Position numbers and translations under genes: made by a program. The notes beneath the pieces were generated by a model, which saw only the letters and a program-made list of their open reading frames with translations, was not told the origin of the DNA and did no database searches. Below are positions 9,059-14,166 of a stretch of DNA of 41,996 bases, piece after piece. The stretch lies in the IMG/VR virus record IMGVR_UViG_2681813224_000020. The stretch is one strand, 5' to 3'. The DNA is from a virus (Duplodnaviria > Heunggongvirae > Uroviricota > Caudoviricetes). The first letter of the stretch is position 1; each line of letters opens with the position of its first letter.

Positions 9059-9361
9059 TTACTCCGTTGATACCAGTAAATGACTGAGGCCGCCCAGATC
9101 AGTTTTCGTGGGATAATCCTGTGTGTTGTCATCGCAGACCACCACCAGCTTAAAACCAAGTCCCATACAGGCGTACTGCGCCAGCAGGTCAGCACCAGTG
9201 ACGAGAGGAATACCGGAGATTACCGGCTCCCCTCTGTCGTTCTGCAGGTCCATAATCCAGTACAGATCGCGCCATATGATGCTAATCCGCCAGGTGACAC
9301 CACCCAGGACGATGCTGAACTGCTGGTTGTCCGCTGTCAGCGGAATTTCCTGAATTGTCAT
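9059..9361 (-). CDS. Small phage tail protein (hypothetical)
   Basis: 100-aa ORF tightly packed between tail genes. Confidence 0.4.
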   Translation of the reverse strand: MTIQEIPLTADNQQFSIVLGGVTWRISIIWRDLYWIMDLQNDRGEPVISGIPLVTGADLLAQYACMGLGFKLVVVCDDNTQDYPTKTDLGGLSHLLVSTE

Positions 9362-9948
9362 TAGCCGCCCCCCAGTAATGACGCCACGTTACCCGTGATG
9401 CTTTTCAGCAGTGAAGTATCTGGAGGCTTGGTGGTTTTGTTGCCGCTGTTCTGTACCGCCGACGTGCTGGCCCCTTCCTTCATGTTGGTTTTATCCGCGA
9501 CGGTAATCTGCTGCGTCCGGGAGATAAGGACCTCCCTCAGGGTGAGGACGGCGGACAGGACGTTTTCGGTTGTCTTGTCCGTCGTCACTTCCAGCGCCCG
9601 GATCAACATGTTGCTGTACAGTCGTTTACCGGTTACCACATCGAAGGGGATACGGCTTTCCTGCAGATCCAGTAGCTCCTGATACGTCTGCTGAGGACTC
9701 AGGCCGAGCAGGCTGGTAGCCGTCAGATTACTGGCAAAATCCAGCAATGCGCCGCCACCGGCGAAACCAACCTCCATCACCACTTCTGACGGTTTTTTAT
9801 AGGCATGATCAGCGACAGCGGCCCCAACCTCTACCGGATGCTCTGTTATTTCAAGCATATCTGTATGCTTCTCTGAAATAACAACACTGGGAACAATCAT
9901 TCCTATTTTTCTGCTCTGCTGATGAAAAAGTGTAGAGAGAATATCCAC
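9361..9948 (-). CDS. Phage tail protein (hypothetical; gpU / DNA-circularisation-N-like position)
   Basis: 195-aa ORF immediately downstream of the tape-measure gene. Confidence 0.4.
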   Translation of the reverse strand: MDILSTLFHQQSRKIGMIVPSVVISEKHTDMLEITEHPVEVGAAVADHAYKKPSEVVMEVGFAGGGALLDFASNLTATSLLGLSPQQTYQELLDLQESRIPFDVVTGKRLYSNMLIRALEVTTDKTTENVLSAVLTLREVLISRTQQITVADKTNMKEGASTSAVQNSGNKTTKPPDTSLLKSITGNVASLLGGG

Positions 9949-11936
9949 TAACCCACCCTCACCTGATTACTTCGCATGACCTGAGCATTTGCAGACTGTT
10001 GCCGACGTGCAACCTCATTACCGACAGCGTGCGGATCTCCACCACCGTAAATGTGGTAGGTATTTTGCTGGTTAACCTCTGTCATTTTGCCACTAATTCC
10101 CGCCACGGCAGCCTTATTAATCAGCTCTCGAGAATAGATATTTCTTCCATTCTCATGCTGGATAATGCTGCTCATCAATGCTGACATGGTTTGCGGATCG
10201 CTCATATTCAGGGCAGCCCGGGGATCCACTCCCAGTCGTTGCGATACAGCCCTGATATACGCAGTTGTGTTGTTATTATCAGACGCAGGTGCCCAGGTAG
10301 AGATAATTTTCTCCACACTGTTTATTCCCCGTCCGGCGTACAGCATTAACTGACGAGCAAGAGCCCGTAATCCATCAAAAGCAGTTTCAAATCTGGCAAA
10401 TCGCCCGCCCGGGCGTTCAAGAGAAGCCCCTGCCTGACCAGCAAAATTAAGGTTTCCCGGATTGTTATTCCGTTCTCCTCGTTTCGTAGCCTGTGCATAT
10501 TGTTCCGGCTCATCATCACCAAACCAGCCGCGTACCGTCCGGCCCACACTGCGGGGATCGAATCCCCAGTGCTCTTTAATCCAGTCGGCAGTACTGTTAG
10601 CGCTGTCTGTAACCATCGGCATCGCTGACGGATTTTCGCTGCCCTGATTAAGTATCTGTTTGCCGATGCTGACGGCATCAGCCCAGCGGCCATCTTTGAT
10701 AGCGTTGAGCAGGTCGGCGATCATGTTCAGCATTTTGCTGAATTCGCCCATCTGGTCGATGAAGTTGCTGAAATCCCACTTCAGGGACCATGATTTGGGG
10801 TCAATATTGAGCAGTTTCGCCAGCGCTTTCACCAGTTCATTAACAGACCCTTTCAGGTCACGAACCATCTTCAGCGCGGCATCGACCTCCGGCTTCCACT
10901 TGCCCCAGTCAATCAGGCTGTCGCCGCCTTCCTTCCAGGTCTGATAGTCCTCCCACAGAAGGGCAATCCCCGCCGCCAGCGCGGTAATGAGGCCAATCGG
11001 CGACATCCAGAACGTACTGTTCAGAATGCGCAGCGCAATCGTCAGCGCGCCAAACAGCGAGATGAGCTCCCGCGTTTGCTTATCCAGCGATTGCCACCAG
11101 GTGATAAGGCTGGATGTTCCCTCAATTAGCCTGAAGAACAGCCGCCCGATGATGTCTCCGAGCGCCAGAATGCCTTTTATGGCTTTCGTCAGGGTCTGCT
11201 CGATGCGCGGGAAGTTATCGAGGATGTGGCGGCGCAGTGTGTCCAGCGAACCCGCCAGACCACCAGCAAGATTAGAGCCGATTTTGTCACGGGCCATGCC
11301 TGCCATCGCGCCGAACTCGCGCAGGGAGGTCATAAATTTGTTGGAGCTTCTGGCCGCCTCGTCAGCATTGAAGCCGATAGCTTTCGCCATTGCGCTGTAC
11401 TGCCCGGAGAAGCCACCCACACCCCGGCGCATCGCCATAAGGGTATTTTCGTCAATGCCCAGCATCTGCGCATACTGGTTAGCCCGGTAATACGGCATGC
11501 CGCTGAGCTTCTGGCCTACACCTGTAAAAATAGAGGCCATGTCACGCATGTTACCGCTGGCATCCCGTGTCTGTACCCCCAGGCGATTCAGAAATCCCTC
11601 TGCACCGGGATTGTTACGAATAAACCGGGAGAGGCTTTCCAGAGAAGAGCGCGCAGCGTCTGCACTGCCGCCAACCTGCGAAACCGCATAGCCAATAGAC
11701 TGAATTCCATGGACCGTCGCGCCGGTGCGCTGTGACGCCCAGTAAAGATTATCCAGACCGGAGGCGATCTTAGCCGTGAAGGCCACCACGGACAGTGCAG
11801 TTCCTTCGACGGCCAGCCCCATTTTGATGACATTTGCAGTTGTACCGGCGAGGACAGAACCGAACTTTTTCGCTCCTGCATCATCCACACTGAAGCCAAG
11901 CGAGACGAGGAAATCTTTAATAGTTTCAGCGTTCAT
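9948..11936 (-). CDS. Tail tape measure protein
   Basis: About 662 aa; Ala/Gly/Met-rich helical repeats (AMAGMARDKIGSNLAGGLAGS...) and a central hydrophobic segment. Start taken at MNAETIKDFL (ATG 11934..11936) preceded by GGAGAGAGGA; the ORF track start 11957 is probably upstream of the real start. Confidence 0.8.
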   Translation of the reverse strand: MNAETIKDFLVSLGFSVDDAGAKKFGSVLAGTTANVIKMGLAVEGTALSVVAFTAKIASGLDNLYWASQRTGATVHGIQSIGYAVSQVGGSADAARSSLESLSRFIRNNPGAEGFLNRLGVQTRDASGNMRDMASIFTGVGQKLSGMPYYRANQYAQMLGIDENTLMAMRRGVGGFSGQYSAMAKAIGFNADEAARSSNKFMTSLREFGAMAGMARDKIGSNLAGGLAGSLDTLRRHILDNFPRIEQTLTKAIKGILALGDIIGRLFFRLIEGTSSLITWWQSLDKQTRELISLFGALTIALRILNSTFWMSPIGLITALAAGIALLWEDYQTWKEGGDSLIDWGKWKPEVDAALKMVRDLKGSVNELVKALAKLLNIDPKSWSLKWDFSNFIDQMGEFSKMLNMIADLLNAIKDGRWADAVSIGKQILNQGSENPSAMPMVTDSANSTADWIKEHWGFDPRSVGRTVRGWFGDDEPEQYAQATKRGERNNNPGNLNFAGQAGASLERPGGRFARFETAFDGLRALARQLMLYAGRGINSVEKIISTWAPASDNNNTTAYIRAVSQRLGVDPRAALNMSDPQTMSALMSSIIQHENGRNIYSRELINKAAVAGISGKMTEVNQQNTYHIYGGGDPHAVGNEVARRQQSANAQVMRSNQVRVG

Positions 11937-12566
11937 TATCCTCTCTCCATTTCTCAATGCGCCGCTGGTTATCCGCTTTTACCGCCAGATGGTCATTCAA
12001 GAGAGCAATGTCGTACAAATCGACAGAGCCATCTTTAAGTGCTGTATAAGGAATTAACCCGGCGTCAACCGGATTGAGAAGGTAGGACAGCCCGTCCGGC
12101 AGGCTGTTAAACGTCAGCCCTGTTGCAGGCTCTGCGTCGTGCTGGTAAGGGGTGTAGGCAAAAAATTTCCCAGCGAATCGGCGACCACCCGCGCCACCAG
12201 CTGCAGCATGACCAGCAGGTCAATATCATCAAACATCAGTTCGCCCTTGGTAAATACCGGCACCCATCCGTCCATATGACGCCGCGACACCACCGCAAGA
12301 CAGGGATGAATAATCGCTTCGGTGTCATCTTCGGTCAGGGAAGACAGCTCCTCAGCGATACGCGGGAGCATGGTTTCAAACACCGGTTTTAACTGCTCGA
12401 ATTTCACGGTTTCGATTTTGCCGTCAGCAGGCAAACGGGAGCGAATGCTCCCGAAATCTGACATCATTCCCGCCAGTACCGGCAGAAGTTTGCGGGTCAC
12501 TTTCAGCTGGTCAAAAACGCTGAGTTTTGCCGCGCGATATTTCACGCCTTTGATTTCGAATTCCAT
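11926..12566 (-). CDS. Predicted -1 frameshift fusion product of the tail assembly chaperone (G-T-like), slip near 12160..12170
   Basis: The -1 frame is open from the A-AAT-TTT heptamer to a TGA at 11926..11928, hand-translated as ...FAYTPYQHDAEPATGLTFNSLPDGLSYLLNPVDAGLIPYTALKDGSVDLYDIALLNDHLAVKADNQRRIEKWREDNER; it ends just inside the tape-measure start. Confidence 0.45.
12114..12566 (-). CDS. Tail assembly chaperone (lambda G / Mu gp41-like)
   Basis: 150-aa ORF between the tube and tape-measure genes; slippery run GGGAAATTTTTTG near its 3' end. Confidence 0.65.
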   Translation of the reverse strand: MEFEIKGVKYRAAKLSVFDQLKVTRKLLPVLAGMMSDFGSIRSRLPADGKIETVKFEQLKPVFETMLPRIAEELSSLTEDDTEAIIHPCLAVVSRRHMDGWVPVFTKGELMFDDIDLLVMLQLVARVVADSLGNFLPTPLTSTTQSLQQG

Positions 12567-12569
12567 GTA

Positions 12570-13010
12570 TTAAAACTCCCCGAGAACCTGGTCAATCTTG
12601 CCGCAGTCAAACACCCACGGCATCGTATTACCGGTTTTAGCGTTGGCATTATCCGGTTGTTTCTGGAACGCAACACTACGTGCCGTGATGATGTCGCCGC
12701 TGACCTTGTTTCGGATCACAATAACGTTATTCCCCCATGTGGCAGAAGACTGGCTCTGTGCGTTATACGCCAGCGACAATTTTTTATTTGTCGGTGATGT
12801 CTTCAGAAGGTTAACGGTAATCGTCCCGCTTTTATCTGCATGGAGACTGTGCATCACTTCGCCATCAGAACCGATGGTCATGGTGTTTTTAGGACCGCCC
12901 ATCGCAACCACAATCCCCTCTTCAGAACTTGCAGAACCGTACCCGAGGTCAATCGAACCGGTCGGCCCGGTCAGCGTCGCAGTGACATCCATAAAAGAAT
13001 AGGTAGACAT
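12570..13010 (-). CDS. Tail tube protein
   Basis: 146-aa ORF immediately downstream of the sheath gene. Confidence 0.6.
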   Translation of the reverse strand: MSTYSFMDVTATLTGPTGSIDLGYGSASSEEGIVVAMGGPKNTMTIGSDGEVMHSLHADKSGTITVNLLKTSPTNKKLSLAYNAQSQSSATWGNNVIVIRNKVSGDIITARSVAFQKQPDNANAKTGNTMPWVFDCGKIDQVLGEF

Positions 13011-13020
13011 TCACTTCCCC

Positions 13021-14166
13021 TTAGCGAACAACGTTAATCTGTACGTCAGCGTAATGAACCGCGCCTGCAAGTTTTATTGCAGCCTGAATCACCGGAGCCT
13101 TACGGGCTTCACGTTCTGATTGTGCCTGTTCATCCAGCGGCTGGGCGTATACGTAATAACCTTTGGGCAGTGTGTCACCTGATGACAACTGACCAAGGTC
13201 GCCCCCGTTCCATACGCCCGGAGCAATCAGTCCATTCTGAACGGCCTGATCCAGTGATTTTTCAACATTTGATAACAGTCGGGTAATACCGGCTTCAGTC
13301 TGGGGAACCTTCGTGGTGCTGGTATAAAGCAGGTTATAGAGGTTGGTCTGCACATAATTCTGTAACCAGTCCAGGCCGTGGCGTTCATCAAAGAAATCGC
13401 CGTTAGCCATCACTCCCTGCTGGAGGATAGCTGTATCATTCTGGTAGTACACGAACACATTGCAGTTTTTTGCATCAAGTGCCGATGCCTGGCTGACTGT
13501 CAGTGTTTCATACCCGACACCCGGCTCCTGCTTAAACTTGAGCGTAATCGCGGTATTACTGCCATTGAAATTAACCGTGAATGCCCGGCCAAATGCAGAT
13601 AACGCAGCGTATTTATTACCCGATGAATACTGAATAAAACTGCGTGAATATCCGGCGGTTTTCAGTTTTGATGCCAAATCATCGCTGGATGCAGTCTGCA
13701 GGCATTTCTCATCGCTTGTCGTAATCGCCAGAATACGGCTTACAGAAGAGGATTCGATCGCCGCAGCCACTTTCAGCCAGTCTGCATCCGGAATATCTGC
13801 ATCGTCTGCAATCCCCAGCCCATACCATGAAGTATAATCAAGCATGGCATTCACAGCCTGCTCCAGCGTCTCAGGCGTGGCCTGTTCGCTGTCTCCCTTC
13901 GTTTTCACCCAACGACCAACAAAAACCTCCTGAGGTTTCGGTGATTGTGAGAAAAACACCTGCGCAGCTTTATATTCTGGTGATTCCACGCCAAAATCTT
14001 TTCCAATATCTTCCGCGGCAGAATAACGACGAATGCGCTCACTTACCGGAATGATTGTGGACGGGCCGAGAATGAGTAATGCACCAAAATTTCGCCCTGA
14101 TGCTGCACGCGGCGACATGATCACATCAACATTAACAACGTTTGATACAGGCAAGCCCTGTGCCAT
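13021..14166 (-). CDS. Contractile tail sheath protein
   Basis: 381-aa ORF upstream of the tube, chaperone and tape-measure genes; size and order typical of myovirus sheaths. Confidence 0.75.

Follow-up and report, generated by a model that had tools for sequence, protein, structure and literature searches.

The short tail assembly chaperone gene (G) of a contractile-tailed Escherichia coli prophage very probably contains a programmed -1 ribosomal frameshift, a reading to which, on sequence grounds, we give a probability of about 0.9. The DNA analyzed, referred to here as the window, is a viral stretch of 41,996 nucleotides. Most ribosomes would stay in the 0 frame throughout G and terminate at 12114, producing a chaperone of 150 aa. 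A slipped ribosome would instead continue in the -1 frame through a DUF6889 domain, termed T, as far as the TGA at 11926, to give a long form, GT, of 213 aa (Table 1). The feature is of an already known kind, an ordinary phage trick of which this is one more conserved G/GT case, and it confirms that the region is a tail module. An earlier reading made from the sequence alone had proposed such a shift over positions 11926-12566, which correspond exactly to the start of G and the stop of GT, and every feature expected at the sequence level of a G/GT-type programmed -1 frameshift is indeed found here.

Table 1. Positions of the chaperone gene, its predicted recoded extension and the neighboring tail genes in the window
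Feature	Coordinates	Strand	Remarks
Tail sheath gene	14166..13021	minus	phrog_205 'tail sheath', E 1e-135; Pfam DUF3383
Tail tube gene, directly upstream of G	13010..12570	minus	Pfam KPP10_Orf10 / Phage_Tube_PhiTE, E 7e-60
Gene G, short tail assembly chaperone, 150 aa	12566..12114	minus	0 frame; ATG 12566, TGA 12116..12114
GT, predicted long form, 213 aa	12566..11926	minus	one base would be read twice
Slippery run GGGAAATTTTTTG	12171..12159	minus	three overlapping in-frame heptamers
T segment, -1-frame extension predicted only in GT	12161..11926	minus	TGA 11928..11926; 77-78 aa post-slip
Tape-measure protein gene	11936..9948	minus	ATG 11936..11934; C-terminal lytic transglycosylase

The genes run along the strand in the order sheath, tube, G (with T in the -1 frame) and tape measure. 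G lies between the tube and tape-measure genes, the position associated with G/GT chaperones (Xu et al. 2004). The tape-measure gene matches phrog_2276 'tail length tape measure protein' (E 3e-282), and its RefSeq CDS begins at the same ATG (11936). From the positions of this ATG and of the -1-frame TGA it follows that GT and the tape-measure ORF share 11 nt, so that the long form stops just past the tape-measure start, as the earlier reading had it; the overlap, ATGAACGCTGA, is kept in most relatives. Gene G matches Pfam PF21822 Phage_TAC_15 at 108.1 bits, against a gathering threshold of 22, over residues 6-138. The -1-frame translation of T matches PF21829 DUF6889 at 73.4 bits (vs 23.9; E 1.2e-20) over 40 of the 40 profile positions, and also phrog_4364 (E ~2e-23). 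In an AF2 model of the long form, residues 160-212 form three confident helices that are preceded by a low-confidence linker. Neither G nor T had a sequence match in PDB or NCBIfam, Foldseek against PDB likewise returned none, and scans of the window for Rfam families and tRNAs were empty. Long multi-repeat matches to the T query (P0135, P0146, P0150, P0167 and P0229) are unrelated repeat proteins, such as PEGA and InlB B-repeat, and were rejected.

At the slip site the 0-frame codons are CTG GGA (12170-68) AAT (12167-65) TTT (12164-62) TTG (12161-59) CCT, and the -1 frame is GGG AAA TTT TTT GCC, in agreement with the GGG-AAA-TTT-TTT-G read earlier. The pattern X_XXY_YYZ occurs in the 0 frame within the G/T overlap three times over, since GGGAAATTTTTTG holds G_GGA_AAT (12171-12165), A_AAT_TTT (12168-12162) and T_TTT_TTG (12165-12159). 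The sequence-only reading had placed A_AAT_TTT correctly and had omitted the two heptamers that overlap it. An open -1 frame extends from 12219 to 11926, overlapping G at its 3' end, and lacks a start of its own. It holds 79, 78 or 77 sense codons before the TGA, depending on whether the count begins after the first, second or third heptamer; the 79 further codons reported earlier therefore hold when counted from GGG-AAA, but become 78 after A_AAT_TTT, the heptamer that had been named. The 13-mer is found once in the window (expected 0.11, allowing one mismatch). Within the window, however, ORFs of at least 100 aa contain 59 in-frame heptamers, and 5 others run at least 30 codons past the 0-frame stop. 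A heptamer followed by a long open -1 frame is thus not statistically unusual here and is weak evidence on its own, so that it is the comparative data that decide.

The slip site and the -1 ORF are kept in 19 phages and 80 bacterial species, at identities of 25-100%. At 75 of the 80 species-level genome loci the upstream ORF matches the TAC profile in a frame that requires a -1 shift, and the remaining 5 have the same layout; a +1 shift is required in none of the 19 phages and 80 species. When 96 non-identical loci are compared, all have the -1 layout and 93 have an in-frame T_TTT at the homologous codon, while the flanks diverge. The check suggested with the earlier claim, that the slippery site should be conserved in related phages, therefore came out in its favor. 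Matches to G in tblastn stop at residue 135, the slip-site Phe codon, in 40 of 40 phage records. The run GGGAAATTTTTTG is identical in 8 diverged phages of the enteric clade, though the next codons differ, shows no synonymous variation in that clade and is invariant in 160 of 160 related IMG/VR contigs. Of 5426 complete E. coli genomes, 337 carry this type of prophage with the same split layout. Over the 186 nt after the G stop, substitutions on -1-frame positions 1, 2 and 3 number 5, 2 and 26 relative to SEN34 and 5, 2 and 25 relative to YP3, and amino-acid identity to these two phages is 90-92% in the -1 frame vs 56-57% in the other two frames. This pattern indicates that the T reading frame is under strong purifying selection.

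The run would offer the P- and A-site tRNAs three places at which to re-pair one base back. Of these, A_AAT_TTT, at which tRNA-Asn would occupy the P site and tRNA-Phe the A site, appears the most likely and is a reasonable choice on several sequence grounds. Heptamers of the form R_RR.U_UU.Y are frameshift-prone in E. coli, in which UUG and AAU are poorer, 'heterogeneous' codons in the A site (PMC4066793), and X_XXT_TTT is the commonest canonical form at the slip position in the family (58 of 96 loci). A_AAT_TTT is nevertheless not proven as the site, because it is overlapped by T_TTT_TTG, the heptamer on which phage P2 shifts without a downstream hairpin (PMC3091744); T_TTT_TTN is found at the slip codon in 39 of the 96 loci. 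A slip at A_AAT_TTT would produce the junction ...SLGNF-FAYTPYQ..., and the alternative slip at T_TTT_TTG the junction ...SLGNFL-AYTPYQ.... The predicted Asp-N junction peptide is DSLGNFFAYTPYQH for a slip at A_AAT_TTT or G_GGA_AAT and DSLGNFLAYTPYQH for one at T_TTT_TTG. In 22 of the 96 relatives there is only the T_TTT tetramer, with a non-canonical P-site codon, and classical tandem slippage may therefore not be universal in the family.

A downstream stimulatory RNA structure was rejected: single-sequence folds of the 49-109 nt that follow the site gave z-scores of -0.8 to -1.3, and an alignment fold of 8 enteric relatives gave a consensus of -2.1 kcal/mol with no covariation. An upstream Shine-Dalgarno-like stimulator is likewise unsupported. 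The candidate, GGGTGG at 12190..12185, sits 16-19 nt from the heptamers and is kept in the enteric clade, but it codes for conserved residues, and anti-Shine-Dalgarno pairing upstream of the site is weak across the family. With neither a conserved downstream structure nor a convincing Shine-Dalgarno-like stimulator, one would expect the motif by itself to drive a low-level shift, of a few per cent, in the manner of lambda G/GT and P2 E/E+E'. If the proteins work as they do in lambda (PMC5009743), G would coat the tape-measure protein, both on its own and as part of GT. The T domain, carried by the rare GT, would then recruit the tube protein, and tube, followed by sheath, would polymerize around the tape measure; neither G nor GT would be expected in the virion.

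Some members of the family carry G and T as a single ORF. These fusions fall into 7 clusters at 50% identity, are colinear with the predicted GT across the junction and join G and T at exactly the slip point, and in the two cases checked the junction DNA is non-slippery. Some relatives thus manage without a frameshift. It is possible, although we consider it unlikely, that the Phage_TAC_15/DUF6889 family represents a natural series in which the GT:G ratio is tuned by sequence, from the enteric 13-nt run of three stacked heptamers, through single canonical heptamers and the bare U_UUU, to the in-frame fusions of the 7 clusters, which would have no short form at all. Should the stacked run prove to shift at two or more positions, or should lineages that have only the fusion build tails with no free G, the rule derived from lambda, by which G must be in a fixed large excess over GT, would need qualifying.

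The -1 ORF could also be read as an independent small gene, and RefSeq has it as a 54-aa 'DUF6889 family protein' that starts at CTG 12090. PGAP annotates exactly this in E. coli ECONIH2, separate small CDSs with assorted starts are found in yong1, ZHS, PSTCR3, BgManors32, MD-2021a and ST16-OXA48phi5.2, and most DUF6889 representatives in the protein library are ORFs of 40-90 aa. This reading is highly improbable. The -1 frame of the window has no ATG or GTG, its sole TTG comes 30 codons before the end, and no clear Shine-Dalgarno sequence precedes the CTG. Among relatives the called starts vary by record and none is conserved; at 64 of 95 loci, ATG, GTG and TTG are all absent before an invariant LP motif. 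In several relatives the slip site is reached just 0-5 codons after the -1 frame opens. The conserved -1-frame sequence (F[FY]xRxxY ... LPxGEDW) starts immediately at the slip site, ahead of all the called starts, and the PGAP start removes the invariant Leu-Pro. The natural fusions, moreover, link both domains.

Transcriptional slippage would lead to the same proteins by a different step. Homopolymer runs are known sites of such slippage, and RNA polymerase could insert an extra U at the T6 (A3T6) run, leaving a fraction of mRNAs with GT in one frame. The run is T6 in the enteric clade and T7 in Photorhabdus, and an extra U is the right change, since a T7 variant of the DNA yields a fused ORF. 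Many members, however, keep only TTTT followed by A (e.g. CCT TTT ATT) with the same layout, and a TTTT run is too short for appreciable polymerase slippage. The conserved element is also frame-specific, being the 0-frame T_TTT of the 93 loci, as ribosomal re-pairing predicts, and for the chaperones of lambda and P2 the shift takes place on the ribosome (PMC5009743; PMC3091744). Slippage by the polymerase is thus very unlikely, if marginally less so than a separate gene. Least probable, to the point of being negligible, is that there is no recoding, the layout being either the decayed remnant of a fusion gene broken by a frameshift mutation or an open frame that arose by chance between genes. 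Heptamers with open -1 frames do occur by chance elsewhere in the window, and the in-frame fusions of relatives are possibly the ancestral state. Yet the split layout extends over the complete E. coli genomes, the IMG/VR contigs and the 96 diverged loci described above, and this wide conservation, together with the purifying selection on the -1 frame, effectively refutes a pseudogene. A programmed ribosomal frameshift remains the preferred reading.

The G/GT system of lambda, reportedly worked out by Levin et al. in 1993 and by Xu, Hendrix and Duda in 2004, 2013 and 2014, resembles the present case in several respects. The chaperone gene immediately precedes the tape-measure gene, a -1 shift close to the 3' end of G adds a T domain, the shift depends on the motif with no RNA structure, and the expected partners would be the tape measure for G and the tail tube subunit for T. 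In contrast, the sequences share no detectable similarity, the slippery heptamer of lambda is G_GGA_AAG whereas three overlapping heptamers are found here, and in lambda gene T is followed by H, as opposed to the 11-nt overlap with the tape measure. Lambda is also a siphovirus, whereas the tail here is sheathed. The GT:G efficiency of about 1:30 is a lambda figure. The lambda chaperone system has been reviewed (PMC5009743).

Phage P2 is, like the phage studied here, a contractile-tailed temperate enterobacterial phage, and its TTTTTTG motif is present here in the same frame (12165..12159). The E/E+E' frameshift of P2 was reportedly described by Christie et al. in 2002. Motif and mechanism are shared with P2 but the family is not: the chaperone here belongs to Phage_TAC_15, which is all that a Pfam scan (E <= 0.01) returned, with no match to the P2 gpE family. 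The products also differ in length, with E and E+E' of 91 and 142 aa in P2 and 150 and 213 aa here, and the family comparison favors X_XXT_TTT, one codon upstream, at least as strongly. For the slip position, its efficiency and what G and T would do, we extrapolate from lambda and P2, neither of which is related in sequence. The HK97 tail assembly chaperone (PDB 2ob9) gives a weak structural score with the G domain and shows no sequence similarity to it.

True homologues are found in Klebsiella phage Mulock (CPT_Mulock_014/015, MN098327), with 58% identity in G and an identical GGGAAATTTTTTG, and in Burkholderia phage Magia (gp15/gp16, NC_070954), with ~37% identity in G and a C_CCT_TTT site. 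For both, a joined 'tape measure chaperone frameshift product' CDS has been deposited, the joins being predictions of the annotators; the Mulock genome announcement does not mention the frameshift. A join is present in 2 of the 19 phage records, which bears out the earlier remark that ORF callers usually miss such features, and RefSeq calls a separate CTG-started ORF. The practical value of the finding lies in annotation, since RefSeq treats the T segment as a free-standing "DUF6889 family protein". Recognition of DUF6889 as the frameshift-encoded T domain of Phage_TAC_15 chaperones would give the domain a role and correct many records, some of which, in GenBank, name the T segment "NTP pyrophosphohydrolase" or leave a 177-nt gap in its place.

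The tail assembly chaperone gene of this prophage is very probably (we would put it at about 0.9) subject to a programmed -1 frameshift, giving the long chaperone of the G/GT type that a sequence-only reading had proposed. That proposal is supported by a DUF6889 domain in the -1 frame. Sequence comparison shows a gene laid out in two frames with a slippery run, a -1 frame that is under purifying selection and lacks an independent start, and natural fusions that are colinear with the long form. The short product is referred to as G, the long one as GT, and the -1-frame extension found only in GT as the T segment.

Features of the tail module, the slip site, the natural fusions and the predicted GT structure
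Feature	Position	Strand	Remarks
Tail sheath gene	14166..13021	minus	phrog_205, DUF3383
Tail tube gene	13010..12570	minus	KPP10_Orf10 / Phage_Tube_PhiTE
G, tail assembly chaperone, 150 aa	12566..12114	minus	Phage_TAC_15, phrog_1688
Heptamer G_GGA_AAT	12171..12165	minus	in frame
Heptamer A_AAT_TTT	12168..12162	minus	in frame
Heptamer T_TTT_TTG	12165..12159	minus	in frame
Stretch without 0-frame ORF, 177 nt	between G and tape-measure gene	minus	
Tape-measure gene	11936..9948	minus	phrog_2276, E 3e-282
Fusion proteins	P0137, P0144, P0151, P0159, P0160, P0187, P0221		TAC_15 + DUF6889
Fusion loci traced to DNA	L261 2501-3133; L263 1038-1664		
G domain	residues 1-136		beta-hairpin + helices (AlphaFold2)
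Linker	residues 137-159		low confidence (AlphaFold2)
T domain	residues 160-212		three helices, confident (AlphaFold2)

Codons 132-136 of G read CTG GGA AAT TTT TTG in the 0 frame, and the run becomes GGG AAA TTT TTT G in the -1 frame, exactly as the sequence-only reading had it, with A_AAT_TTT in frame. The -1 frame then stays open for 79, 78 or 77 sense codons, according to the heptamer from which they are counted, up to a TGA at 11928..11926. The tape-measure ATG lies at 11936..11934, in agreement with the RefSeq start, and GT therefore ends 11 nt within the tape-measure ORF. The earlier observation of 79 open codons and a stop just inside the tape-measure start is thus confirmed, with refinements on the heptamers and codon count only. 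The predicted GT is 213 aa with either junction, which would be GNFFAY if slippage occurs at G_GGA_AAT or A_AAT_TTT and GNFLAY if at T_TTT_TTG. Within the window, the pattern of a heptamer and an open -1 frame is by itself no more than chance would give: 59 in-frame X_XXY_YYZ heptamers lie in ORFs of 100 aa or longer, both strands counted, and besides the three here five have a -1 continuation of at least 30 codons beyond the 0-frame stop. The case for frameshifting therefore rests on comparative evidence. A G_GGG_GGC at 9367-9373 (minus strand), read in the frame of gene 9948..9361 and three codons short of that gene's stop, is most likely a coincidence, because the 102 codons of its -1 continuation are just the frame in which the following gene, 9361..9059, is read.

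The 150-aa ORF is identified as a tail assembly chaperone by its matches to Pfam Phage_TAC_15 (108 bits, cut-off 22) and phrog_1688 (E 1e-64). The -1 translation of the extension matches the full DUF6889 profile (73.4 bits, cut-off 23.9; E 1.2e-20) as well as phrog_4364 (E 1.8e-23). Over the 186 nt from the G stop to the T stop, differences at -1-frame codon positions 1/2/3 number 5/2/26 against Salmonella phage SEN34 and 5/2/25 against Yersinia phage YP3, and amino acid identity to the two is 90-92% when the -1 frame is translated, against 56-57% for the two others, a comparison that shows purifying selection on the putative -1 product. The 45 nt overlapping the tail of G carry the same -1-frame bias, so that selection there acts on the T frame rather than on the G tail. 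In agreement, tblastn matches to G stop at residue 135, the slip-site Phe codon, in all 40 matching phage records, at identities from 97% down to 25%.

The T segment has no capacity for independent translation. Its -1 frame in the window holds no ATG or GTG, and the sole TTG lies 30 codons ahead of the stop. Of 95 relatives, 64 lack any ATG, GTG or TTG ahead of the invariant Leu-Pro of DUF6889, and in the remainder the positions of start codons are scattered. Several relatives have a -1 frame that opens just 0-5 codons 5' of the slip site, so the shift is tightly bracketed between the upstream -1-frame stop and the G stop.

The relatives compared were 19 phage records and 80 loci from a collection of one genome per bacterial species, the 80 loci having been located with a T-domain alignment. 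At 75 of the 80 loci the upstream ORF has its match to a TAC profile in a frame needing a -1 shift, and none of the 80 needs a +1 shift; direct inspection finds the arrangement ...NLG[NP]F... / ...F[YF]xR...LPxGEDW... in all of them, the remaining five included. Conservation of the slippery site in homologous phages, suggested earlier as a check, is borne out: 93 of 96 non-identical loci carry T_TTT in frame at the corresponding Phe codon. Among these 96, 58 have a canonical X_XXT_TTT (A_AAT_TTT, C_CCT_TTT or G_GGT_TTT), 39 have T_TTT_TTN, and 22 retain a bare T_TTT tetramer, the codon in the P site being non-canonical (GGG CCT TTT ATT is an example). The three without T_TTT, from Bordetella, Achromobacter and Ralstonia (L087, L124 and L112), have G_GGA_AAT or C_CCT_TTC instead and, with the 22 tetramer-only loci, indicate that slip chemistry is not uniform across the family. 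The 13-mer GGGAAATTTTTTG is identical in eight diverged phages of the enteric clade despite differing next codons, and unchanged in 160/160 close IMG/VR relatives. The same GGGAAATTTTTTG run occurs in Elizabethkingia phage EKP1 (L086, OM284015), whose chaperone is 51% identical to that of the window; its recorded host belongs to the Bacteroidota and its tail module is of enterobacterial type, and the host assignment seems to merit checking.

An exhaustive protein search with the T segment returned mainly ORF-caller fragments of 40-90 aa, together with seven clusters (50% identity) of 190-210-aa proteins in which TAC_15 is followed by DUF6889 in one frame. These natural fusions align colinearly with the predicted GT, the joint falling exactly at the slip site. 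The junctions of the two traced to DNA read CCG TTC TTC TCC and GGC TAC TTC TCG, with no homopolymer and no slippery sequence, so these fusions are real rather than sequencing errors. Their existence shows that the G and T domains function as a single polypeptide. At L261 the fusion gene comes after a tape-measure homologue and at L263 it lies 5' of Dit-like and baseplate genes. The few kb available around each showed no separate short chaperone. An AlphaFold2 model of a 97%-identical fused sequence, from an input alignment that included natural fusions, had a mean pLDDT of 85 and a pTM of 0.76. A 97%-identical copy on a Logan contig (SRR23924998_45326; L262 995-1008) has T7 in place of T6 (GGGAAATTTTTTTG) and encodes one fused 213-aa ORF (P0001), joined as GNFFAY. 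This copy may be a genuine GT-only mutant, or the extra T may be an error in sequencing the homopolymer.

The shift would be made by the ribosome rather than by RNA polymerase, with an efficiency of perhaps a few per cent. Transcriptional slippage on the T6 run is a possible rival explanation in this clade; as a family-wide mechanism it is unlikely, because many members retain just TTTT. For ribosomal slippage, no significant or conserved RNA structure was found 3' of the slip site, and anti-Shine-Dalgarno pairing upstream is weak family-wide, so the shift is probably motif-only. A GGGTGG at 12185-12190 (minus strand), 16-19 nt upstream of the slip site (16 nt 5' of A_AAT_TTT) and kept in the enteric clade, might act weakly as a Shine-Dalgarno-like stimulator, but the same bases code for conserved residues (ARVV). 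The corresponding spacing in dnaX, about 10 nt, is shorter. Phage P2 is likewise reported to shift by -1, at TTTTTTG, without a hairpin (PMC3091744), which provides a precedent for T_TTT_TTG as the alternative heptamer, and a motif-only shift would fit the low level of the lambda G/GT shift (PMC5009743). A survey in E. coli by Sharma et al. found UUN and AAN to be the most shift-prone A-site codons, 'homogeneous' codons (UUU, UUC) to outdo 'heterogeneous' ones (UUG, AAU), and R_RR.U_UU.Y heptamers to be notably efficient (PMC4066793); these preferences, and the family-wide dominance of X_XXT_TTT, favour A_AAT_TTT as the slip heptamer. By analogy with lambda, G would coat the tape measure and the T domain of GT would recruit the tube protein (PMC5009743).

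The feature is already known, both in kind and within this family. Frameshifting of the G/GT kind is a textbook example of a trait conserved among long-tailed phages, and joined 'frameshift product' CDSs are already deposited for Klebsiella phage Mulock, which has the same 13-mer, and Burkholderia phage Magia. As remarked earlier, ORF callers do usually miss it: RefSeq calls a separate CDS and the join is absent from 17 of the 19 phage records. The window is an E. coli prophage that matches strain ECONIH2, and equally strain 23CRST009, at 100% identity; among 5426 complete genomes, 337 carry related copies. For the T segment RefSeq/PGAP gives a separate CDS of 54 aa, named 'DUF6889 family protein', with the CTG at 12090 as its start codon (window 11926-12090, minus strand; L260 2111-2275). 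This start removes the invariant Leu-Pro, and such a CDS recurs across E. coli genomes with related copies. The practical worth of the finding is an annotation correction and a role for DUF6889. In Klebsiella phage ST16-OXA48phi5.2 (L098 1662-1814) the T-segment ORF is misleadingly named 'NTP pyrophosphohydrolase', and in Edwardsiella phage vB_EpM_ZHS (L088 1878-2787) the gene directly 3' of the T segment, a tape-measure gene by position only, is named 'portal protein'.
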